From NCBI GenBank assembly GCA_964436785.1, contig CAYTEE010000002.1, positions 1 through 35,476 of the forward strand: DNA of 35,476 nt, written 5' to 3'. Positions 4,844 to 32,009 of this stretch are shown here, one piece after another (the first letter of the stretch is position 1; each line of letters starts with the position of its first letter). A model generated the notes under the pieces. The model had not been told where the DNA came from. It saw only the letters and a list, made by a program, of their open reading frames with translations, and did not search any database. The DNA is from an uncultured Candidatus Saccharibacteria bacterium. Lineage in GTDB: Bacteria; Patescibacteriota; Minisyncoccia; UBA6257; 2-01-FULL-56-20. A program made the position numbers and the translations under genes.

Positions 4844-4984
4844 ATGGGTCCCTCACCTTTGAAGGATAATAGTCGGTCCGAAGCCAAAGCGGGACGATTG
4901 ACGTGGTTTATGAATAATAGTCGATTATTAAACAATAAAATAAGGATTTGCGAACGCTTCGCAATCCTTCAAGGGTGAGGGATG
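4844..4984 (+). promoter_or_regulatory. Start-codon-abutting inverted-repeat element, copy A
   Basis: Left arm CCCTCACCTTTGAAGGAT (4850-4867) pairs with right arm ATCCTTCAAGGGTGAGGG (4964-4981) around a 96-nt interior. The ATG of the downstream gene follows immediately at 4982, and ATGGGT flanks both ends. Confidence 0.7.
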
Positions 4985-6763
4985 GGTGAGCGCATAGAAA
5001 GTTTCGGATTCGAAAAACCGGCGGTGCCGGCGGAAGAGCCGAGGAGGCCCTCAAAAATAAAATGGCTTATCGTTCTTTTTTCGGTTTTTCTCGTCGGGGG
5101 TTCCCTCGCGCTTTTTTTTCTCCTTGGGAGAGAATCGAATCCGCATATCGCGGGAGTCGAGTTTAAGAAGCCGGATTCGGTGCTCATCGGAGAGCCGTTC
5201 GTGGTGAGCGTCTCCGTGACAAATCCGTCCAATCAGATATTGCAGGACGCCCGCCTTATTTTGAATCTTCCCGTGGGCGTATCGCTCGTCGGCCAGCAGG
5301 AAACTTTGCGCACCGTCGAGCGGATGATCGGGGACATAACGCCGGGAAGCTTGACGCCGAACACATTTAATTTGATCGCCCTTGGAGACAATCTTTCGCT
5401 CGCGCGGCTTTCGGCAACTTTGGAATACCGAGTCTCCGGTTCCAAGGTGGAATATTCGGAGAAATCCGAAGTTGACGTGGCATTAAGCCAGCCGGCGATC
5501 TCTCTTGATATGGAGGGGCCATCCAGCGTTCTTTCTTCGGAGAGTTTTGACATATTGCTCCGGTATAAAAATAATTCCGCACAACCATTCGACGGGTTGC
5601 GCCTCAAAGTAACATACCCCGCGGCATTTAAGGCCGGGAAAACCGAGCCGGCGCCACAGATGCCGAATATATGGAGCCTCGAAAATCTCGCGCGAGGAGC
5701 AAGCGCGGAAATAAAGATATCCGGCGCCGTCACCGGATCTGAGGGGCAGTATTTCCCGATAAAGGCGGAAATACTCGGCAAGGTTCAGGGGAAAGAATAC
5801 GCGCTTGTCACAAAGACGCTTACGGTCGGCGTTCAGTCGTCTCCGCTCGCGCTCGCCGTATTTGTGAACGGCAAAAGCGACTATATCGCGCGGCGCGGAG
5901 AACAGCTTTCATACGAGATCAAATACAAAAATAATTCCGATACCGCGTTCGAGAACATAACCGTAACCGCGAAATTGATCGGTGAGATGTTTAATTTTTC
6001 TTCGATCATGGAAAATCTGCCGTTCAACTCGCTTACCAATACCCTTACGTGGACCTCGGCGAACATGCCGGAACTTGCCCTGCTCTCTCCGGGCGAGGAA
6101 GGCATGATACGATTTATGTTCCGGACGAAGGATTCATTCCCGATATCCCGGATCGGAGACAAGAATTATCTCCTTAAGGTGAGCGCGCAGATCGAATCCC
6201 CGACGGTTCCGTCCGGAACGCCGGTGTCGCGGACTATCTCGGTCGCAAAGAGCGAAAATAAAGTGTACGGGGAACTCGGCATTGACGCGCGCGCCTTCTT
6301 CTGGGATGCCGCCTCGGGCATCGCGAACACCGGGCCGTTCCCGCCTAAGGTGGGTCAGCCGACGCAATATACGATCCATTGGGTCGTAAAAAGCATGGCA
6401 GCGGACTTTAGCGGGGTTACCGTGACGGGGTTCCTTCAGCCCGGAATCCGTTGGACGGGAAAGGTGAAAAGTTCCGTTGCCGCCGTTCCGTCCTACGACC
6501 CAAATTCCGGAAAAGTAACATGGCTTATCGATCATTTGCAGGCAAACCGAGGCATAGTGGGCGACCCGGTTGAGGCTATTTTCCAAGTTTCGGCGACGCC
6601 CTCCACAAACCAGGTCGGGCGTGATATAACGCTTCTTGAAGAGACAAAACTTGAAGGCAGAGACGATTTTACGGGTTTTGCGTTTAGCGCCACCGACCAA
6701 GGGGTGACCACCAGGCTTCCCGACGATCCGAATGCGCCGGTCGGCACGGGGGTTCAGCCATAG
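4982..6763 (+). CDS. Membrane-anchored surface protein with repeated CARDB/DUF11-like beta-sandwich modules
   Basis: N-terminal TM segment (WLIVLFSVFLVGGSLALFFLL). Recurring module signature: GEPFVVSVSVTNPSN, SFDILLRYKNNSAQPFDGLRLKVTYP, GEQLSYEIKYKNNSDTAFENITVTAKL, QYTIHWVVKS...GVTVTGFL. Confidence 0.7.
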   Translation: MGERIESFGFEKPAVPAEEPRRPSKIKWLIVLFSVFLVGGSLALFFLLGRESNPHIAGVEFKKPDSVLIGEPFVVSVSVTNPSNQILQDARLILNLPVGVSLVGQQETLRTVERMIGDITPGSLTPNTFNLIALGDNLSLARLSATLEYRVSGSKVEYSEKSEVDVALSQPAISLDMEGPSSVLSSESFDILLRYKNNSAQPFDGLRLKVTYPAAFKAGKTEPAPQMPNIWSLENLARGASAEIKISGAVTGSEGQYFPIKAEILGKVQGKEYALVTKTLTVGVQSSPLALAVFVNGKSDYIARRGEQLSYEIKYKNNSDTAFENITVTAKLIGEMFNFSSIMENLPFNSLTNTLTWTSANMPELALLSPGEEGMIRFMFRTKDSFPISRIGDKNYLLKVSAQIESPTVPSGTPVSRTISVAKSENKVYGELGIDARAFFWDAASGIANTGPFPPKVGQPTQYTIHWVVKSMAADFSGVTVTGFLQPGIRWTGKVKSSVAAVPSYDPNSGKVTWLIDHLQANRGIVGDPVEAIFQVSATPSTNQVGRDITLLEETKLEGRDDFTGFAFSATDQGVTTRLPDDPNAPVGTGVQP

Positions 6764-6865: not shown

Positions 6866-6975
6866 ATGGATCCCTCACCTTTCCCGGGTGCAGTAATGCA
6901 GTTTTTGGTATATGTTATAGTCAGAAGCTATTGATGAATAATATGGAACAAAGTCCGCCGAAAGGTGATGGGATG
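6866..6975 (+). promoter_or_regulatory. Start-codon-abutting inverted-repeat element, copy B (degenerate)
   Basis: Left ATGGAT-CCCTCACCTTTC (6866-6883) and right GAAAGGTGATGGG (6960-6972) followed by ATGGAA. The helix is 14 bp with one bulged T, around a 76-nt interior. Confidence 0.55.
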
Positions 6976-8286
6976 GAAAAAATAGTCAGTCTTTGCAAAA
7001 GGCGGGGCTTTGTATTCCCAGGCTCCGAGATCTACGGCGGGCTTGCGAACAGTTGGGATTATGGGCCGTTGGGTGTTGCGCTTAAAAACAACATAAAGCA
7101 ATTATGGTGGAAAAAGTTCGTCGAGGAACGGGATGATATGGTGGGGCTCGATTCTGCCGTCATTATGAGCCCGAAGGTGTGGGAGGCGTCCGGGCACGTG
7201 AAGGAGTTTTCGGATCCGCTTGTGGAGTGCAGAAAATGCCATATTCGGATGCGGGCGGATGAATTGAACAAAAATGCATGCTCCAATTGCGGCGCCGGAG
7301 AATTCACCGAACCGAGAATGTTCAATATTCTTTTCAAGACCTTTATCGGTCCGGTTGAAGATTCAAAATCAACGACTTACCTGCGAGGGGAGACCGCGCA
7401 GGGGATATTCGTGAATTTCAAAAATATTCTGGATACCACGCGGAAAACATTGCCCTTTGGTGTGGCGCAGATCGGTAAGGCGTTTCGGAACGAGATAACG
7501 CCGGGGAACTTTATATTCCGCACGCGCGAGTTCGAGCAGATGGAGATAGAGTATTTTATTCCCGAGCCGGACCCGGAGAACGAAGAATCGTGGATGAAAT
7601 ATTTCGAGATGTGGCAGTTGGAAATGATGAACTGGATAAAGGAAGTCGGCATTCGTCCGGAGAATGTCGTACAGGTGGAAATTCCCGACGGCGAACGAGC
7701 CTTCTATTCAAAGCGGACGATAGATTTTGAATATCAATATCCATTCGGGCAAAAGGAGCTTTTCGGGCTCGCGTATCGCACCGATTTTGACCTCAAAAAT
7801 CACGAGAAGGCGAGCGGCGTGAATTTGAAGTATAAAAGCGCGGACAAAGAAGAGGCGGCATATTGGCCGCCGGTTATCGAGCCGTCGCTCGGTGTGGACC
7901 GTATGATGCTCGCGGTGCTCCTGGACGCATACGACGAGAGCGACCCGGAACGCATCGTGCTGAAGTTGAAGCCTAAACTTGCGCCGTACAAAGCCGCGGT
8001 CTTTCCGCTTCTCGCAAATAAGCCGGAACTCGTTGCGAAGGCGCGCGAAGTTTATGATGCGCTCCGGAAGGAATTTGCGGTAGCATGGGACGACAGGGGC
8101 AATATCGGAAAGCGGTATTACTCGCAGGATGAGATAGGCACGCCGTATTGCATTACCGTTGACTTTGAAAGTTTGGAGAATCCGCCGGCTGGCGGAGACG
8201 TGACTATCCGCGACAGGGATACGGCAAAGCAGGAACGGGTCAAGATCTCGGAACTCGCGAATGTTATAAAAGAGAGATTAAAATGA
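6973..8286 (+). CDS. glyQS: Glycine--tRNA ligase (single-chain dimeric class II type)
   Basis: IVSLCKRRGFVFPGSEIYGGLANSWDYGPLGVALKNNIK is the canonical GlyRS N-terminus. Class II motifs and the C-terminal anticodon-binding segment VTIRDRDT..QERV are present. The start is 6973 (MEKIV) or 6934 (13 extra residues); see findings. Confidence 0.92.
   Translation: MEKIVSLCKRRGFVFPGSEIYGGLANSWDYGPLGVALKNNIKQLWWKKFVEERDDMVGLDSAVIMSPKVWEASGHVKEFSDPLVECRKCHIRMRADELNKNACSNCGAGEFTEPRMFNILFKTFIGPVEDSKSTTYLRGETAQGIFVNFKNILDTTRKTLPFGVAQIGKAFRNEITPGNFIFRTREFEQMEIEYFIPEPDPENEESWMKYFEMWQLEMMNWIKEVGIRPENVVQVEIPDGERAFYSKRTIDFEYQYPFGQKELFGLAYRTDFDLKNHEKASGVNLKYKSADKEEAAYWPPVIEPSLGVDRMMLAVLLDAYDESDPERIVLKLKPKLAPYKAAVFPLLANKPELVAKAREVYDALRKEFAVAWDDRGNIGKRYYSQDEIGTPYCITVDFESLENPPAGGDVTIRDRDTAKQERVKISELANVIKERLK
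8179..8197 (+). repeat. 19-nt GC hairpin AATCCGCCGGCTGGCGGAG, in frame inside glyQS (encodes NPPAGG)
   Basis: 18/19 identical to 15429..15447 in rseP. The stem is TCCGCC/GGCGGA. Confidence 0.7.
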
Positions 8287-10590: not shown

Positions 10591-10864
10591 GATTTTTTAT
10601 GGAAAAAACTTTTTGCGTGATGCCCAACGGCTTCCGAAAGAAGCCCAACAAAAACTTGCCTCACTTCTAGAAATACTCGCTGATGATCCATTCGACCCGC
10701 GTCTTCACGGTAAAGCGCTTGGGCCTCCGCTCCGCGGTAAGTTTTCTTTCCGCATCACGCGCGATTGGCGAGTGGGGTTTGAATTTCTGGACGCGCATAC
10801 GATACATCTCCTAGCCGCAGAACGCCGTGATCGTATTTATAAACGACTTGAGCGATTACGATGA
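10574..10864 (+). CDS. RelE/ParE-family type II toxin
   Basis: 96 aa with the pattern L..L..DPFDPRLHGKALGPPLRGKFSFRITRDWRVGFEFLDAHTIHLLAAERRDRIY, typical of RelE/ParE plasmid-stabilisation toxins. Confidence 0.7.
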   Translation: MAEKGRIFYGKNFLRDAQRLPKEAQQKLASLLEILADDPFDPRLHGKALGPPLRGKFSFRITRDWRVGFEFLDAHTIHLLAAERRDRIYKRLERLR

Positions 10865-12182: not shown

Positions 12183-12252
12183 AGTATCAAGTATCATAGA
12201 TACGCGTCATGTGTCCATGTGCGTGTCATGTATCAAGTATCAGGTGTCATGT
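12183..12252 (+). repeat. Degenerate heptamer tract (AGTATCA x2 ... GTCATGT ... ATCAAGT ATCAGGT GTCATGT)
   Basis: Read directly from the sequence. The 13-mer GTATCAAGTATCA occurs twice (12184-12196 and 12230-12242). Confidence 0.55.
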
Positions 12253-12318
12253 TTTAAGAGCCGTGGCTCATGATGCCTGCCGCCTGGCACTTGATGCCTG
12301 ACACCTGACACATTTACA

Positions 12319-13329
12319 ATGTTCACTCGCAAAATAGGCATTGATCTGGGAACGGCGAATACCGTTGTATTCGTTCCCTCAAAAGGATTTATCATCAACG
12401 AACCGACGATCGTTGCTTTAAGCAAGCCGGAAAATTCCGTTCTCGCCGTAGGCTGGGAAGCGAAAGAAATGATAGGGCGGACGCCCGAAGGCATCGTTGC
12501 GTACCGGCCATTGAAAGACGGCGTTATCGCGGACTACTACATCACGAAGGCGATGCTCACGTACTTTATCGGAAAAGCCGTGGGACGTTTTAATATTTTG
12601 AAACCGGACGTGGTTATATCCGTTCCGGCGGGGATAACGCAAACGGAGCGGCGCGCCGTGATAAATGCCGCGCGGGAAGCGGGGGCAAAGGAAGTGTATG
12701 TGGTACGGGAGCCCATTCTCGCGTCGCTCGGCGCCGGCATTCCCATCAACGCGCGCTCGGGGAATATGATCATCAACATGGGCGGCGGAACGTCGGAAGT
12801 TGCGGTGATCGCCCTGGGCAACGTTGTTGCATGGACAAGCTTGCGCGTTGCCGGGAACAAGTTCGACCAAGCAATAAGCAATTACGTAAAAAAGAGGTAT
12901 TCTTTGGCGATCGGCGAGCAAACCTCGGAAACGGTAAAGATAGAGATAGGTTCGGCGCTTCCGCTTAAGGAGAAAATGGAGGCACAGTTGAGAGGGCGAG
13001 ACTTGATATCCGGCCTTCCCAAGGATATCCGCATCACTTCGAATGAGATCGCGGAAGCATTGAACCCGTACCTTGTGGAAATTGCGGCTTCCGCGCAAAG
13101 CGTTTTTAACGCAACGCCGCCGGAACTGGTTGCGGACATTATGGAGAAGGGGATCATCCTCTCCGGTGGAAGCGCTCAATTGCATTACATGGAGGACTTT
13201 TTTGAGAAAAATCTCGGCGTCCAGAGCTATATCGCGCGGGACCCGATTTTCTGTGTAGCCAAAGGAACGGGGCTTATTCTGAACCATCTTGAAACTTACA
13301 GACGCACCCTCTTGAATAAGCGGCAATGA
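12319..13329 (+). CDS. mreB: Rod shape-determining actin homolog MreB
   Basis: IGIDLGTANTVVF, the phosphate-binding motifs, and GGGTSEVAVI are present. Confidence 0.93.
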   Translation: MFTRKIGIDLGTANTVVFVPSKGFIINEPTIVALSKPENSVLAVGWEAKEMIGRTPEGIVAYRPLKDGVIADYYITKAMLTYFIGKAVGRFNILKPDVVISVPAGITQTERRAVINAAREAGAKEVYVVREPILASLGAGIPINARSGNMIINMGGGTSEVAVIALGNVVAWTSLRVAGNKFDQAISNYVKKRYSLAIGEQTSETVKIEIGSALPLKEKMEAQLRGRDLISGLPKDIRITSNEIAEALNPYLVEIAASAQSVFNATPPELVADIMEKGIILSGGSAQLHYMEDFFEKNLGVQSYIARDPIFCVAKGTGLILNHLETYRRTLLNKRQ

Positions 13330-14153: not shown

Positions 14154-14245
14154 AGATCCCGCCTTCGCCCACCGGCTTCGGACGGGCAGGCAAATATCAA
14201 AATGAAAAATGACAGATTTAAAATTTTAGAATTTTCGATTGTAAC

Positions 14246-14273
14246 TTTGATTTTTGATTTTTAAATTTTGATT
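14246..14273 (+). repeat. TTTGATT-type heptamer tract (TTTGATT TTTGATT TTTAAAT TTTGATT)
   Basis: Read directly from the sequence. The same unit recurs at 30521..30541. Confidence 0.7.
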
Positions 14274-14281
14274 TAAACACA

Positions 14282-14833
14282 ATGGAACAATACATAAAAG
14301 AGCTGGAAACTCATCTTGGCGCAACTCTTCATAAATTCAAGGAGGACTTAAGCGGCGTGCGGAGCGGCCGCCCCACGACACAGCTTCTCGAAAATATCCA
14401 AGTTGAATACGCCGGCTCGTTTCTCCCGATAAAGCAAATAGGGTCCCTGGGAGTGCGCCCTCCCCGCGAGCTCGATATTACGGTCTGGGATCCGGGCGCC
14501 GTTTCCGCCGTGATGAAGGCGATAGAAGGCGCAAAGATAGGGCTGAGCCTTCAAAACGAAGGGAACACCATTCGCGCGTTCTTGCCTCCCTTAAGCCAAG
14601 AGCGGCGCGAAGAGTTGATGAAACTCATTAAAAAAATGGCGGAGGGCGCGCGGATCTCGATACGCGCAAGCCGAGATGACGCAAATAAAAAAATAAAAGC
14701 CGCCGAAGCGGTAAAGGAATTGAACGAGGACCAGGTGTTCCAGGCGAAAGAGAAGATACAGAAAGTCGTTGATGAAATAAATAAGCAGATAGAAACGCTG
14801 GTAGAGGGGAAGGGGAAGGAGCTTCAAGAATAG
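14282..14833 (+). CDS. frr: Ribosome recycling factor
   Basis: 183 aa with the typical RRF pattern: SGVRSGRPTTQLLENIQVEY...LSQERREELMKLIKKMAEGARISIRASRDDANKKIK. Confidence 0.93.
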   Translation: MEQYIKELETHLGATLHKFKEDLSGVRSGRPTTQLLENIQVEYAGSFLPIKQIGSLGVRPPRELDITVWDPGAVSAVMKAIEGAKIGLSLQNEGNTIRAFLPPLSQERREELMKLIKKMAEGARISIRASRDDANKKIKAAEAVKELNEDQVFQAKEKIQKVVDEINKQIETLVEGKGKELQE

Positions 14834-16841: not shown

Positions 16842-18347
16842 ATGTCTCTCCTCATTAAAAACGTACAAATTTTGGGCGGGGAAACAAAATTTCCCGACCG
16901 CGCGGACCTTTTTGTGGTCGGAGACAGGATATCCGCGATAGGAAATTTTACCGAAAAAAAGGCGAAGCGCGTGATCGATGGGCAGGGAGCATATCTCGCT
17001 CCGGGGTTCATTGACGTGAACACGGACTCAGACCACTATCTGAGCGTCTTTGATAACCCGAGCCAGGACGATTTTTTGCGGCAAGGCGTAACGACGATCA
17101 TCGGCGGGCATTGCGGTTCGTCCCTTGCGCCGCTCCTTTATGGCGGCCTTGAATCGATACAAAAATGGGCGGACACAAGAAAGGCGATCGTGAATTGGCA
17201 TACCATGGGAGAATTTTTGGCGTTTTTGGACCGGAAGCCCCTCGCCGTAAATTTCCTGACGCTCGTCGGGCATTCCACTATCCGCCGCGCGATGATCGGG
17301 GAACAACTTCGGAATCTTACCCAGAACGAACTCATTGTTTTTGGAGAAACATTGCGGCGGGCGCTTGCCGAAGGAGGAGCCGGCCTCTCGACGGGACTCG
17401 CGTATGTGCACAGCCGTGGAACGCCGTATTCGGAAATAAAATTTCTCGCGGGGATAGCGAAAGAACGGAACGGCGTTTATTCCACCCATCTCCGGACAAG
17501 TGGAGCCGACTTGGGCGGAGCGATCGACGAAACCGTCCGCATCGCGAGCGAAACGGGGATCACAACCCTGATCAGCCACTTTATGCCGCTTGTGGGCGCC
17601 GAGAAGGAATACGAGGCCGCGCTCGAGTTGCTTGGCGGACTTCCCAGGGAAGTTAACCTCCGGTTCGATCTCTACCCGTTCGAAACGAGCGTTTTGCCGC
17701 TCTACGCGTTCCTGCCGCTCTGGGTGCAAAACGGCGGTGCGGATGTAATGGTGAGTAACATAGAGGACGGCTGGATGCGTGAGCGCATCATGAAAGATTT
17801 TGTCCCGATCAACCCGAAAAATTTTGTGATCGCGCACGCGGTAGGAAACCCCGCGCTTCATGGTTTGTCCCTCGTAGACCTTATGGAACATTATTCGGTC
17901 GCCGACTATAAAAGCGCGCTCATGCGCCTTATGCTTTCCACAAAACTCCGCGCATCCATTTTTTACAAGAACATCAATACCGATCTGATCCGAAAGGGGA
18001 TCACGCATCCGCGGTCGTTCGTTTCTTCGAATTCCGCGAGCCTTCTCGAGAGCCGGAAGTTCGAGCAGCCGGAACGCGCGTCAAAGACGTTCACGAGATT
18101 TTTGGAACTTGTCGTGAGTGAAAATATCATGCCGCTTGAAGACGCGATCCGTAAAATTACCGCGGAGCCGGCGCAGGCGTTCCGCCTTAAGAACAGGGGG
18201 AGCATCCGCGAAGGGAATATCGCCGACCTTGTTTGCTTCCGCGATATCGAAGTGAAGGCGACCGTCGTGAACGGAGAAGTGGCGTTCGAAAACGGCGTGT
18301 TCCAGAAAAAATTCTCCGGGAAAGCGCTGCGCTACTATGGCAATTAA
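16842..18347 (+). CDS. D-aminoacylase / N-acyl-D-amino-acid deacylase family amidohydrolase with degenerate HxH motif
   Basis: APGFIDVNTDSDH and GVTTIIGGHCGSSLAP match the family, but the canonical H-x-H is N-T-D here (17019-17027). Confidence 0.7.
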   Translation: MSLLIKNVQILGGETKFPDRADLFVVGDRISAIGNFTEKKAKRVIDGQGAYLAPGFIDVNTDSDHYLSVFDNPSQDDFLRQGVTTIIGGHCGSSLAPLLYGGLESIQKWADTRKAIVNWHTMGEFLAFLDRKPLAVNFLTLVGHSTIRRAMIGEQLRNLTQNELIVFGETLRRALAEGGAGLSTGLAYVHSRGTPYSEIKFLAGIAKERNGVYSTHLRTSGADLGGAIDETVRIASETGITTLISHFMPLVGAEKEYEAALELLGGLPREVNLRFDLYPFETSVLPLYAFLPLWVQNGGADVMVSNIEDGWMRERIMKDFVPINPKNFVIAHAVGNPALHGLSLVDLMEHYSVADYKSALMRLMLSTKLRASIFYKNINTDLIRKGITHPRSFVSSNSASLLESRKFEQPERASKTFTRFLELVVSENIMPLEDAIRKITAEPAQAFRLKNRGSIREGNIADLVCFRDIEVKATVVNGEVAFENGVFQKKFSGKALRYYGN

Positions 18348-23478: not shown

Positions 23479-23621
23479 ATGGATCCCTCACCCTTGTGCG
23501 ATCACGCATACATAGAATACAAATTATTATGAAAAAAGTTTTATATTCCACTTTTATGGATGAGGCTAATAGGCCGCCAGCTATAGTCGCGGAGCGACAA
23601 ATCGCACAAGGGTGAGGGATG
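23479..23621 (+). promoter_or_regulatory. Start-codon-abutting inverted-repeat element, copy C (best copy)
   Basis: A perfect 20-bp helix, 23483-23502 with 23601-23620, includes the A and T of the murE ATG (23619). The interior is 98 nt. The left end is ATGGAT-CCCTCACC and the right end is GGTGAGGG-ATG. Confidence 0.75.
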
Positions 23622-24938
23622 AAGAAAATCCTCCGCTTATTAGCTCCAAAATTTATTTTAAGCGGTTATCACTTGGCGCTCGCGTATCTCGCCGCGCTTT
23701 GGTTCGGATTCCCGTCAAAAAAAATGACGGTGATCGCCGTTATTGGAACGCGGGGGAAAACAACAACGGCGAATCTTATCTGGTCGTGCCTTACCGCCGC
23801 CGGCCACAAAACGGGGCTTACGGGAACAGCCAATATCAGAATAGGGGACAGGGAGTTCTTGAACCCCTATCACATGACAATGCCGGGGCGTTTTGTTCTC
23901 CAGAAACTTCTCTCCGACATGAAGCGTGCCGGATGCGAATACGCGGTCGTGGAAACCCCATCCGAAGGAGTTGAACAGTGGCGCCATAAAGGAATTTCGT
24001 ACGACGCGGCGGTGCTCACCGTGGTTTACCCCGAATATGCCGCGGCGCATGGCTGGAGCTTTGAGCGCTGTAAGCGTATGCACCTCGAGGTTTTTAAAAA
24101 ACTTGCGGGAGGAAAGCGGAAGATATTGAACGGGAAAAAAGTCCCCAAGACCATCGTTGTGAATGCCGATAGCGATTTCAGCGAAGATTTTATCCAATGC
24201 GAAGCGGATAAGAAGATTACATACGGCATAAAACATGCCACCGATTGCCGCGGAGAAGATATCCGCGTCGGTCAGTCGAACATTACTTTCCGCGTAGGGA
24301 AAGATACATACGAATTGCGCATGCGAGGAGCGTTCAACGTCCCCAATGCCCTTGCCGCCGTCGCGCTATGCTCCGCCCTGGGTATCGAACAGGAAGCGAT
24401 CACCCAAGGCATTTCACAGCTCAAATGCGTCCCTGGCAGAATGGAATCCATCGAAGCCGGACAGCCGTTCTTGGTGCTTGTGGATTATGCGCACGACGCG
24501 GTGAGCATCGAGGCGGCTCTTCGCGCGGTGCACGTAATGAAGAAGTCGCGTTCTTCGAAGGTCATTGTTCTGTTCGGCGCGACGGGAGGCGGGAGAGACA
24601 AAAAAAGGCGGCCGTTGATGGGGCGCCTGGCCGCGGAGCTGGCTGATCTTGTTATCGTGTCGAACGACGACCCGTACGACGATGATCCGCAGGAAATTCT
24701 CGAGGACGTGGCCCGGGGAGCCGAAGAAGCCGGCGCGAAAAGAGGGGAAAAGCTCTTTGTTATCGAGGATCGCCGGGCGGGGATGGCAAAGGCCTTTTCT
24801 TTGGCGAAGGAAGGGGATATAGTTCTTATAGCGGGAAAGGGAGCCGAACAGTCCATGGTGATGAGCGGAGGGAGGGAAATCGCGTGGGACGACCGGGTTA
24901 TCGCCAGGGAAGAACTCGGCAAGCGCGCAAATATATGA
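23619..24938 (+). CDS. murE: Mur ligase, MurE-like (UDP-MurNAc-L-Ala-D-Glu:diamino acid ligase) lacking the usual N-terminal domain
   Basis: VIGTRGKTTTANLI P-loop, DYAHDAVSIEAAL, GATGGGRDKKRRPLMG, VSNDDPYDDDP, IAGKGAEQ. Only about 35 residues, which are hydrophobic, precede the P-loop. Confidence 0.8.
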   Translation: MKKILRLLAPKFILSGYHLALAYLAALWFGFPSKKMTVIAVIGTRGKTTTANLIWSCLTAAGHKTGLTGTANIRIGDREFLNPYHMTMPGRFVLQKLLSDMKRAGCEYAVVETPSEGVEQWRHKGISYDAAVLTVVYPEYAAAHGWSFERCKRMHLEVFKKLAGGKRKILNGKKVPKTIVVNADSDFSEDFIQCEADKKITYGIKHATDCRGEDIRVGQSNITFRVGKDTYELRMRGAFNVPNALAAVALCSALGIEQEAITQGISQLKCVPGRMESIEAGQPFLVLVDYAHDAVSIEAALRAVHVMKKSRSSKVIVLFGATGGGRDKKRRPLMGRLAAELADLVIVSNDDPYDDDPQEILEDVARGAEEAGAKRGEKLFVIEDRRAGMAKAFSLAKEGDIVLIAGKGAEQSMVMSGGREIAWDDRVIAREELGKRANI

Positions 24939-26071: not shown

Positions 26072-26623
26072 ATGAAATTGCCTGGAGATTATATTGCTGG
26101 TTTCGTCGATGGTGAGGGGTGTTTTGCCCTAAAATTCAGACGCGACATTAAGCTTAATAGGAAAAATACTCCTGTATATTTTTATTGGGATATTGAATTT
26201 GCAATTATGCTTCGCGAAGACGACAAAGAAATTCTTGAGAGTATTAAAGAGACTATTGGATGTGGGAGAATTAGTACTAGTAAAAGAGGCTCTGTAAGGT
26301 ATTCGGTGAATCATGTTGGTGATCTTATTGATAAAATAGTGCCATTTTTCGAACTATATCCACTTCATGCAAAAAAGCTGTTCGATTTTGAATTATGGAG
26401 AGAAGCGGTAGAAATTATTAAGAGGAATCAACGAATAAAAATAAATGCAGAAATTGGGAAAGATGGTTTTCAAAGAACAGTTTATAAACCAAGAGATATA
26501 GGGAGATTAAAGGAAATTCACGAGCAGATGAAGCAATTTAAGGGTCGTACTCATGAATGGAAGTGGCTAATGGATAAGCACAGAGAATCATGTGACGTAA
26601 AAGAAACAATGGGCGACATATAG
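26072..26623 (+). CDS. LAGLIDADG-family homing endonuclease (single-motif type), free-standing
   Basis: YIAGFVDGEGCF motif near the N-terminus, 183 aa, markedly AT-rich compared with its flanks. Confidence 0.85.
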   Translation: MKLPGDYIAGFVDGEGCFALKFRRDIKLNRKNTPVYFYWDIEFAIMLREDDKEILESIKETIGCGRISTSKRGSVRYSVNHVGDLIDKIVPFFELYPLHAKKLFDFELWREAVEIIKRNQRIKINAEIGKDGFQRTVYKPRDIGRLKEIHEQMKQFKGRTHEWKWLMDKHRESCDVKETMGDI

Positions 26624-30547: not shown

Positions 30548-31270
30548 CTAAAACTGCAGGTATTTCTCCCACTTTTCGTATAGCGCGCTCGTCGCCCGCA
30601 GGTCCCCGACATTATATTTTGCTATCTCAAGATACTTTTTCTTCTTGAAAAGTGGCGCAACATCATCGCCCGTCACGCCGCCCGCCTTTGGGCTCTCGAT
30701 GCCGAACGCCCGCGACCACAAGTGCAAACTTCCTTTCTTCCGGCTCGCACCATAGAACGTAAGCTGTTCCAGGAGGTCGATGTGGAGCGCCTCCGGATTA
30801 TGCTGATATAAATAGCGCCCGCGCATCAAGTCCTTCGTGGGACGGATGCCCTTTATCGCCGAGCGGATCATCAAAAACGGCACGTCAAAACTCCTTCCAT
30901 TGAACGTAATGAACACCTGATAATGCCGCGCCGCTTCCCAGAATTTTCGGAGCATTTCCTCTTCGTCCATTGGTTTGAACGAAACCCCCTCTTCTTTGGT
31001 TTCGGTGAGCTTCGATCCGGGCGCCTGGAAATATACCGCCCCTTCGTTTTTGTGGTAATCGAGCATTCCTATCGCGACGATCTCGCCCGTCAAGGGAGAA
31101 AATCCAAGGCCGCTCTTCAGGTCTTCGAGCGCCATTTTGTAGTCCTCCTCATCTATAGAATCGCGCTTGATCCAGCGGGTAAGATTTTCCTGCGTTGCCC
31201 TATCGAGAGAATCAAAGTTCTCTCCTATTGTTTCAATATCGAAAACAAGTTTTTGGGTGGCGATTGACAT
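30548..31270 (-). CDS. Predicted 3'-5' exonuclease, RNase H-like fold (PolB-exonuclease-related)
   Basis: LVFDIETIG (Exo I DxE), ITFNGRSFDVPFL (Exo II) and YNVGDLRAT (Exo III YxxxD). Confidence 0.7.
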   Translation of the reverse strand: MSIATQKLVFDIETIGENFDSLDRATQENLTRWIKRDSIDEEDYKMALEDLKSGLGFSPLTGEIVAIGMLDYHKNEGAVYFQAPGSKLTETKEEGVSFKPMDEEEMLRKFWEAARHYQVFITFNGRSFDVPFLMIRSAIKGIRPTKDLMRGRYLYQHNPEALHIDLLEQLTFYGASRKKGSLHLWSRAFGIESPKAGGVTGDDVAPLFKKKKYLEIAKYNVGDLRATSALYEKWEKYLQF

Positions 31271-31410: not shown

Positions 31411-31558
31411 ATGGCATCCCGTCCCCAATTTTGCCGATACTTTCACGGCGACGCACGCCGTAGGCGGTCCTATTCGGACACTGCGTCGCTCCGAAGATGT
31501 ATGCCGTTTGGTGATTCTGGGTTTTTACTTCAAGAGAAGGCAAAATTGGAGAGGGATG
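31411..31558 (+). promoter_or_regulatory. Start-codon-abutting inverted-repeat element, copy E (degenerate, followed by a decoy L27 start)
   Basis: Left ATGGCAT-CCCGTCCCC-AATTTTGCC (31411-31435) and right GGCAAAATT-GGAGAGGG-ATGGCAT (31539-31562), around a 103-nt interior. The ATG at 31556 opens only MAFSS*. Confidence 0.6.
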
Positions 31559-31601
31559 GCATTTTCTAGTTAAATTTTTTCGCTATCGCTCTAAAATTTA
31601 A

Positions 31602-31739
31602 ATCCCTCACCCAAAAAGGATAAACAATTTTATCGAAGCCAAAGCATTACCCAAACAACTATGATTCAGGCAAAAATCAAGGTCAAAAAATATAACAAGG
31701 ACTTGCGGGGGCTTCGCAATCCTTTTTAGGTGAGGGATG
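31602..31739 (+). promoter_or_regulatory. Start-codon-abutting inverted-repeat element, copy D (rpmA leader)
   Basis: Left arm CCCTCACCCAAAAAGGAT (31604-31621) and right arm ATCCTTTTTAGGTGAGGG (31719-31736), 19/20 paired when the AT of the ATG is included. The interior is 97 nt, and the true L27 ATG is at 31737. Confidence 0.75.
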
Positions 31740-32009
31740 GCACATACCAAAGCAGGGGGTTCAACTAAATTAGGAAGAGAATCGCGGTCCCAACGGCTCG
31801 GGGTTAAGTTACAAGACGGCCACAAAGTGATGCCGGGGCAAATTATCATCCGCCAGCGCGGGACAAAATACTTGCCCGGCGCAAACGTTCTCCGCGGAGG
31901 CGACGACACGCTCTACGCCAAGAAAAGCGGCATAGTAAAATTTTCCACAAAAAATAAAATAAAATTCGACGGCTCGCGGCGCACGGCTACGGTTGTCGCT
32001 GTAGTGTAA
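31737..32009 (+). CDS. rpmA: 50S ribosomal protein L27
   Basis: [24 protein letters not shown]... is the canonical L27 N-terminus. Confidence 0.95.

Follow-up and report, generated by a model that had tools for sequence, protein, structure and literature searches.

A palindromic repeat of the Patescibacteria (the candidate phyla radiation, CPR) sits on the start codons of genes in a 35,476-nucleotide stretch of DNA from an uncultured Candidatus Saccharibacteria bacterium (contig CAYTEE010000002.1; the whole stretch is called the window here), which holds five copies of it. The repeat forms a Patescibacteria-wide family whose members are gained and lost among relatives, are locked on start codons in a fixed orientation and contain an open upstream reading frame (uORF) that stops 3 nt before the gene. 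Judging from the sequence comparisons below, we put the probability at roughly 0.6 that the copies are a non-autonomous palindromic DNA element, similar to the MITEs (miniature inverted-repeat transposable elements), that is distributed throughout the Patescibacteria, lies at start codons and carries its own stop-restart cassette.

The five loci that a first-pass annotation of this DNA had reported are all present (Table 1), and in each of them the helix formed by the two arms terminates at the A and U of an ATG, as had been described. The right-end ATG opens a long open reading frame (ORF) in four copies, those before the 593-aa protein gene, glyQS, murE and rpmA; that of the upstream rpmA-leader copy (31556) is a decoy of 5 codons. 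The long-range helix is found in the minimum-energy RNA fold of all five copies, with z-scores of -3.7 to -8.4. The internal ORF of the murE copy is real, and the other genes of the window are almost without Shine-Dalgarno (SD) sequences, both of which the annotation had noted. In the glyQS copy an extra T shifts the TGA out of frame, so that the internal frame is fused to the gene. The annotation had recognised no described RNA family, and in Rfam 15 the window indeed gave no match at the gathering threshold; the E-value mode returned miRNA-precursor-like hairpin noise far below it. No earlier description of the repeat was found in Rfam or in the open-access literature searched, though other literature may hold one; the family is apparently undescribed so far.

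What had been called a five-member family is far larger. A scan of one genome per species for ATCCCTCACC-N95-125-GGTGAGGGAT yielded at least 117 loci, nearly all in Patescibacteria, and the family has well over 100 members across this group; Saccharibacteria, Jorgensenbacteria, Harrisonbacteria, Liptonbacteria, Paceibacterota and others are among the matches listed. At least 17 of 20 arm positions are complementary in 100 of the 124 listed matches, the remainder being chance matches in unrelated phyla, and for 79 of these 100 listed family members the junction ATG (the terminal AT plus the flanking G) is the start of an ORF of 40 codons or more. Copies beyond the window thus mostly abut start codons as well. 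A metagenome scan for copies bounded by ATGNN-T-CCCTCACC at the left end and by GGTGAGGG-ATG at the right end gave 43 distinct ones, every one of them followed by an ORF. The outer nine arm bases are fixed by these search patterns, and the next bases are nearly constant. A covariance model trained on the genome-scan copies from other genomes and three of the window copies found strong matches in the window at 4845-4984, 23480-23621 and 31599-31739, and 6867-6975 at E=0.008; it did not recover 31411-31558 and detected no further copy. Among loci fetched from other genomes for comparison (given L-numbers below), it picked up a few variants, some with compensatory outer-arm changes such as ATCCCCCACTCAG/CTGAGTGGGGGAT and GTCCCGTTAGAGACA/TGTCTCTAACGGGAT. 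In viral contigs, which served as negative control, the outer-arm pattern had 14 matches, none with inner-arm pairing and none with an adjoining ORF, and plasmid and phage collections gave chance matches only, or none. Because the viral matches lack both features, and because family members pair with their own partner arm at 9.6 of 10 inner positions versus 7.1 of 10 with arms from other copies, a chance origin of the repeat family is ruled out.

The element is some 135 bp long (about 125-145 bp; the copies span 115-145 bp), with termini TCCCTCACC.../...GGTGAGGGA and perfect or near-perfect arms of 19-20 bp; its sole ORF is the uORF of 24-35 codons, and it has no transposase gene. In 121 distinct copies the helix consists of exactly 19 bp counted from TCCC plus one A:U or G:U pair, and beyond it pairing drops to 23-38%. 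These copies have 75 different inner-arm sequences, double changes occur at 9 of the 19 helix pairs (RNAalifold), and the minimum-energy fold contains the helix in 109 of 118 copies. A second, small GC-rich hairpin just 5' of the right arm covaries too (GCTTC/GAAGC, ACTTC/GAAGT, ACTCCG/CGGAGT and GTTTC/GAAAC, as read from the alignment), and in another subfamily this hairpin reaches into the inner right arm. Under the covariance model, all 43 independent metagenomic copies, none of which had been used in training, give the higher score on the gene-sense strand; the element interior keeps one orientation relative to the gene. Several of the features by which a MITE is recognised are present: a length below about 300 bp without a transposase gene, terminal inverted repeats, and multiple copies with insertion polymorphism. 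Three other properties were considered for the interior and the helix. An internal sigma-70 promoter was rejected, as none is conserved and the best-match scores are equal on both strands, at scattered positions. The motif AAAGGTC, found in only 27/77 and 6/43 copies, is a subfamily feature and not a universal interior motif, and archaeal-type bulge-helix-bulge splicing was dropped since there are no bulges at the helix base.

Two classes of junction can be distinguished. In the first, 37 of the 43 independent metagenomic copies have the same two free bases on the left as directly behind the right ATG, a number reached by none of 100,000 permutations (maximum 28), from which it follows that the gene's first five bases (ATGNN) are duplicated. 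A count of four bases, TGNN, results instead when the perfect palindrome TCCC...GGGA is regarded as the element. The left and right repeats in the window are ATGGG/ATGGG at 4844, ATGGA/ATGGA at 6866, ATGGCA/ATGGCA at 31411, where the duplication is of 6-7 bp, and ATGGA/ATGAA (4/5) at 23479. The left-end ATGG(A/G)T, which the annotation had made part of the element, is duplicated flanking target DNA, and the target is not the ATGG that it had suggested for a MITE: the duplicated bases are ATG plus whichever two bases come next in the gene. The element's last bases and the flank rebuild an ATG at the gene start. The left ATG has a -10-like TANNNT, ending 5-9 nt before it, in 18/43 copies versus 4-8/43 at control offsets, and in the window -10-like hexamers (TATAAT, TAGAAT, TATTAT) end 6-8 nt before the starts at 16842, 28087, 20676 and 25376 on the forward strand and at 31270 and 1571 on the reverse strand; ATGA overlaps are found at 10861, 13326 and 22127. 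The organism probably uses many leaderless or near-leaderless mRNAs, and many of the targets look like leaderless-type genes that were hit five bases into the transcript, an insertion that would leave both arms transcribed. The element length shows no frame preference in the ATGNN class, where the three phases count 17/15/14.

In the second class the element is flush with a stop codon, the last base of which is the base before TCCC in 58 of 78 oriented copies from the species genomes (6 others are of the ATGNN type and 14 of neither). This flush stop closes an ORF of at least 80 codons in 45 of the 78, and other distances are scattered from -260 to +41. The class shows an AT duplication at most, or none. 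Its geometry is best seen in the S13-S11-S4-rpoA-L17-L13 operon of five fetched genomes, where every junction carries the element in some of the genomes and lacks it in the rest. Junctions without it have spacers of 4-21 nt or an ATGA overlap; at occupied ones the conserved stop runs straight into TCCC, GGGA runs straight into the TG of the conserved start, and the spacer is gone. Insertion into a pre-existing TAATG was rejected as the source of the class, given that such 1-nt stop/start overlaps are rare (6 of about 390 in the fetched loci) and that the empty orthologous junctions have 4-21-nt spacers. Erosion of the spacer, by then useless, to its essential boundaries, microhomology-guided replacement or selection for the flush geometry may account for it instead. 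The flush rpmA copy has the left junction of this class, though no upstream gene ends there, in the same window as copies of the ATGNN class.

Comparison with relatives shows that the sites are polymorphic. A locus whose MurE is 91% identical (L124) has the same upstream gene, a 36-nt spacer and TATGGAAAT at the murE site, with no element, and in a locus with 86% identical MurE (L125) the murE ATG does adjoin an element, one whose inner arms differ and whose duplicated bases are ATGAA. For rpmA, a relative with 80% identical L27 has a 108-nt spacer and no element, one with 96% identity has the upstream copy only, and one with 82% has a short hairpin variant; since the flush copy at 31602 is absent from all three, it is recent. 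The upstream copy at 31411 has an ortholog in L179 and a short variant in L181, and the copy at 4844 has one in L147 with identical flanks; the two differ by eight substitutions, none of them outside the left arm and the 5' interior. Paralogous near-identical copies occur within genomes, as in L080 with four in 2.7 kb; one Saccharibacteria contig has 4 copies in 2.7 kb and 3 more nearby. Because of the empty sites at murE and rpmA and the variable occupancy of the ribosomal-protein operon junctions, the element is gained and lost like a MITE.

Several observations concern the same sites or the margins of the family. At the empty murE site of L124 an 11-codon mini-ORF (2465-2503; ATGGAAATC...TCATAA) extends from 2 nt after the M23 peptidase stop to a TAATG overlap with murE, and looks like a natural relay frame bridging the two cistrons. 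In L087, from an unrelated CPR genome, a copy on the reverse strand (about 4907-5043) is flush with the rpmA start (GGG|ATGGCACATA), which makes at least two independent occupations of the L27 start. One Patescibacteria metagenome-assembled genome (MAG), H41-bin049 (L026, L064, L101, L122), has a subfamily in which TGAC or AATT follows the right end instead of G; its junction GGGATTGACA yields a -35-like TTGACA in place of the start codon. Mini-versions that are hardly more than two arms (CCCCTCACCCTTTAAA-ATT-AAAGGGTGAGGGG) occur in L015 (about 2000-2040), L039 (188-289) and L022 (4673-4743); one of these is nested within a full copy, and they include short variants of 70-100 nt that do not adjoin an ATG. 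Well-paired, typical copies are also present on contigs binned outside the CPR (L062 in a Nanoarchaeota MAG; L040, L044 and L085 in Gammaproteobacteria MAGs; L024 in Omnitrophica; L045 in Bdellovibrionales), and could be mis-binned CPR contigs or a sign of transfer beyond the group. The outer-arm chance matches in L028, L057, L099 and L035 (Alphaproteobacteria, Herpetosiphon, Cyclobacteriaceae) belong to another, G/C-rich repeat, CCCTCACCCC...CCCCTCTCCC, of which L028 has several copies and which is unrelated to the CPR family.

The right arm reads GG-UGA-GGG-AUG, and the UGA (inside GGUGAGGG) is a stop codon in frame with the gene, at 3 nt from the AUG. Frame 0 is open, upstream of the right arm, over a median of 28.5 codons versus 9-13 in the other five frames, and over at least 20 codons in 81/118 copies; an ATG lies within the open stretch in 81/118, and the uORF lengths cluster at 24-35 codons. 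Short ORFs ending in the right arm, which the annotation had seen in the window, are thereby borne out, and its proposal of a leader ORF with termination-reinitiation gains statistical support from the open frame 0 and the clustered lengths. At the sequence level the frame also has the marks of a regulatory uORF with termination-reinitiation, being conserved as open and ending within a few nucleotides of the main AUG. Substitutions between related copies are spread evenly over the codon positions (48/42/47), which suggests that the act of translation is constrained and not the peptide. A functional small protein is unlikely, given these uniform substitutions and the very variable peptides, and recoding of the TGA was dropped, as many copies have in-frame TAA codons in the arm. 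In the ATGNN class (n=46) an ORF leads from the native ATG, which is retained, into the element: in 7 of the 17 in-phase copies it is open through to the UGA, as in the 44-codon ORF at 4844-4978, and in 5/46 copies two ORFs are joined by an ATGA overlap (for example at 23529), in 4/46 by a gap of 1-4 nt. GGUGA and its 3-nt spacer may also have the aligned spacing of a good SD contact with UCACC of the canonical 16S 3' end, which may differ in this host; the likeness of the left arm to a 16S 3' tail, also raised by the annotation, is only loose. The element seems to hold a short translated frame from which ribosomes are passed on to the gene.

The long helix could reflect selection on RNA or on DNA. 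The conserved outer and covarying inner arms of a helix family on start codons, as first described, hold up, including the double changes. The further argument, that compensatory changes point to selection on an RNA helix rather than to a mobile sequence, is not supported in view of the empty sites in relatives, the variable occupancy of junctions, the 5-bp duplication and the lack of a G:U excess. Transition mismatches in the inner arms are 32 of the G:U type and 33 of the A:C type, with no bias to either RNA strand, and these equal counts give no sign of selection for a helix in the sense-strand RNA, which should favour G:U. In a DNA palindrome, compensatory changes can arise by template-switch correction of quasi-palindromes, without selection at the RNA level. 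Most simply, the helix would be a terminal inverted repeat or hairpin required for mobility, with its compensatory changes arising from selection on pairing or from template-switch correction.

For a MITE-like element with a stop-restart cassette, the following course of events can be envisaged. The element would be co-transcribed with the gene, either because a -10 box precedes the left ATG in many targets (leaderless-type transcripts) or by its location inside an operon. Ribosomes might enter at the retained native AUG, from the upstream cistron or at the uORF AUG in the AU-rich loop, and in translating through the 3' arm they would melt the helix. Termination at the UGA would be followed by restart at the adjacent AUG, where GGUGA may act as an SD-like contact. 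The insertion could thus be tolerated, or even be useful, through this relay, though the gene is cut off from its own start context. Among the mechanisms put forward by the first-pass annotation, a Correia-like MITE is the best supported.

Several results weigh against this explanation. No autonomous partner with the same termini was found, and no matching arm pairs lie 0.4-5 kb apart in about 1 Mb of fetched loci, where the only long-range arm pairs are those of the unrelated alphaproteobacterial repeat; analysis of these loci implicates no transposase either. For a MITE it is unusual that the same termini recur throughout a phylum-level group; recognition by universal host machinery, the ribosome or an RNase for instance, would fit this as well. 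The two junction classes lie side by side, even in one window, and a single cut-and-paste reaction with a fixed stagger fails to explain them; the exact stop-to-start replacement of 4-21-nt spacers is likewise unexplained by it. As to the cassette, an ATG-initiated uORF is present in only about two thirds of copies and a complete relay (through-ORF, ATGA overlap or 1-4-nt gap) in only about one third of the ATGNN copies, and an in-frame UGA is missing from the variants at 6866 and 31411, L085 and L007:6017. Mobility of the IS200/IS605 or REP/RAYT type is disfavoured, by reasoning from the duplication and the long terminal repeats.

A bolder reading is that of a translation-aware mobile module, the insertion of which is steered to stop and start codons and the RNA of which serves as operon punctuation, in bacteria mostly without SD initiation, across the whole Patescibacteria radiation. 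It might be inserted by a cut after the A of ATG or by replacement of the stop-to-start spacer, and its RNA could hand ribosomes across the hairpin between cistrons or be excised to regenerate leaderless mRNAs, in which case the punctuation of mitochondrial transcripts by tRNAs would be a functional analogue. On the present comparisons we consider this reading unlikely.

The repeat might instead be a cis-regulatory RNA of the host, a gate for translational coupling in which the helix masks GGUGA and the AUG until a ribosome at the flush stop or the flush left AUG unwinds roughly the 9-12 bp of the conserved outer part and so frees the downstream start. Conservation of the outer arm would then follow from the right arm being a cassette of SD, stop and start with which the left arm must pair. 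Such a gate would account for the exact flush spike at upstream stop codons (45/78), the placement from conserved stop to conserved start in ribosomal-protein operons, and an outer arm that does not vary even between deeply divergent CPR lineages, in contrast to the covarying inner arm; a strong and clearly defined helix forms, and the window genome is otherwise without SD, relying on overlaps and leaderless-type starts. However, presence or absence of the repeat varies between close relatives, near-identical paralogous copies occur within one genome, a 5-bp flank duplication is typical of insertion, and mismatches show no G:U excess over A:C (32 vs 33). In addition, some variants have quite different outer arms and no SD-like right arm (L007:6017, with CTCTAACGGG), and about 20% of the listed copies are not beside a start codon. 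A gate as the primary explanation thus appears quite improbable.

We are similarly doubtful that the helix is chiefly a processing signal, cut near its base by RNase III or another double-strand- or sequence-specific RNase so as to part the cistrons and give a leaderless or near-leaderless downstream mRNA. The sharp limit of the helix at 19-20 bp, about two turns, agrees with this proposal, two helical turns being about the minimal size of an RNase III substrate, and so does its position flush with a stop codon on one side and a start codon on the other. The genome apparently already uses leaderless starts, -10 boxes lie 6-8 nt before several ATGs of the window and before the left ATG of many copies, and the Correia/nemis repeats offer a precedent as RNase III substrates. 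However, the helix includes the A and U of the AUG, so that a 5'-AUG would need a cut 2 bp in from the base, and no sequence mark is seen at that site; the open in-frame uORF and its UGA would be left unexplained. Both a gate and a processing signal are compatible with a mobile origin.

Finally, a site-specific recombination site, comparable to the attC of integrons or to the palindrome at which a serine recombinase crosses over, inserted at an AT core and with the circular junction GGTGAGGG-AT-CCCTCACC, is very improbable: the architecture is attC-like (conserved outer inverted cores, covarying inner arms, variable centre, 60-140 bp), AT is at both junctions of the flush class and the joined ends would make a perfect palindrome centred on AT, but the attC cores RYYYAAC / GTTRRRY are absent (the repeat has CCCTCACC / GGTGAGGG as its outer cores), the genes on either side of copies are conserved, essential and fixed in order, without cassette arrays, the ATGNN class misfits a 2-bp crossover, the left base is G and not A in copies with a TAG stop, and no recombinase gene is seen near copies.

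Table 1. Copies of the repeat in the window, with their helices, reading frames and adjoining genes
Feature	Position	Strand	Remarks
Copy before 593-aa protein gene	4849..4981	+	direct repeat ATGGG(T) at 4844-4849 and 4982-4987
Helix of this copy	4849-4867 / 4964-4982	+	18/19 paired
Through-ORF, 44 codons	4844..4978	+	from duplicated left ATG across the whole element to the right-arm TGA, 3 nt before ATG 4982
593-aa protein gene	4982-6763	+	long ORF at the element's right ATG
glyQS copy	6871..6972	+	shorter, degenerate, bulged; right arm GGTGATGGG; ATGGA at 6866-6870 and 6973-6977
murE copy, left flank ATGGA	23479..23483	+	4/5 match to gene start ATGAA at 23619-23623
ORF from murE-copy left flank, 17 codons	23479-23532	+	TGA overlaps the next ATG as ATGA
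murE copy	23484..23618	+	ends TCCCTCACC...GGTGAGGG
Helix of murE copy	23483-23502 / 23601-23620	+	20/20 paired; takes in A and U of murE ATG
uORF, 28 codons, murE frame	23529..23615	+	stop is the TGA inside GGTGAGGG, 3 nt before murE ATG
murE (Mur ligase)	23619..24938	+	Mur_ligase domains; ATG is the element's right junction
Upstream rpmA-leader copy	31417..31555	+	divergent; arms CCCGTCCCCAATTTTGCC / GGCAAAATTGGAGAGGG; ATGGCA(T) at 31411-31417 and 31556-31562
Helix of upstream rpmA copy	31419-31435 / 31539-31555	+	15/17 paired
Flush rpmA copy	31602..31738	+	junction TTTAA|AT...AT|GGCAC; without left ATG
Helix of flush rpmA copy	31602-31621 / 31719-31738	+	19/20 paired
rpmA (L27, MAHTKAGGS...)	31737..32009	+	ATG is the right junction of the flush copy

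Among known repeats, the Correia elements of Neisseria (CREE/NEMIS) are among the closest, being palindromic MITEs of about 100-150 bp with long terminal inverted repeats and many copies beside genes. Correia elements are co-transcribed, form long mRNA hairpins that are RNase III substrates, and affect expression. Their terminal sequences are different, however; they duplicate TA, are not bound to start codons, have no in-frame uORF or stop-restart cassette, and are confined to one genus where the present family is Patescibacteria-wide. Neither the 26-bp Correia terminal repeat nor a TA duplication was found in the termini or flanks, which are ATGNN or stop/ATG. The Rickettsia palindromic elements (RPE) are likewise short, mobile palindromic repeats that are tolerated where they are coupled to translation through frame compatibility, but they lie inside coding regions and are translated in the host protein, whereas the CPR element stays outside the mature protein and has its own stop 3 nt before the AUG. 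Integron attC sites are imperfect palindromes of similar size between ORFs, again combining outer cores that are conserved with covarying inner arms around a variable centre; the CPR element, which sits in ribosomal-protein and mur operons, differs in having no GTTRRRY cores, cassette arrays or integrase context. Repetitive extragenic palindromes (REP), their mosaic arrangements (BIME) and the enterobacterial repeats known as ERIC are repeated palindromes transcribed within operons as well, but REPs are 20-40 nt long with a GTAG motif and are RAYT-dependent, ERIC has no start-codon register, and neither rebuilds a start codon. With termination-reinitiation coupling and start unmasking (UGAUG/AUGA junctions, the coat-replicase pair of phage MS2, the L35-L20 operon), the element shares a stop a few nt from the next AUG, SD-like purines overlapping the end of the upstream frame, and a start in a helix that a translating ribosome must open. 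Unlike these systems, the CPR device would be packaged in a mobile-like repeat with its own upstream frame, its function here being predicted.

The window has other features of note. An inverted repeat at 12237-12311, with 26-nt arms (77%) around CAGGTGTCA/TGACACCTG, lies just upstream of the gene at 12319, and an AT-rich overlapping palindrome at 14191-14256 precedes the gene at 14282. A free-standing ORF for a LAGLIDADG homing endonuclease (26072-26623, forward strand; 183 aa; motif GFVDGEGCF; Pfam PF00961) has an M23 peptidase gene on one side and a Mur ligase gene on the other, a position kept in the relatives L001-L006 and L125.

Much of bacterial diversity belongs to the Patescibacteria, and translation start and operon organisation in this group are almost unexplored. 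The repeats described here sit in essential operons, those for ribosomal proteins and cell-wall synthesis, in the exact space from stop to start. Their copies produce decoy ATGs and spurious small ORFs by which gene callers are misled, and the covariance model provides a marker for CPR contigs. The family may show how a selfish element enters a start codon without silencing the gene, by means of its own stop-restart cassette; alternatively, it may show that these bacteria couple translation or process mRNA through a portable hairpin module. Both readings offer a concrete and testable handle on gene expression in an uncultivated radiation.

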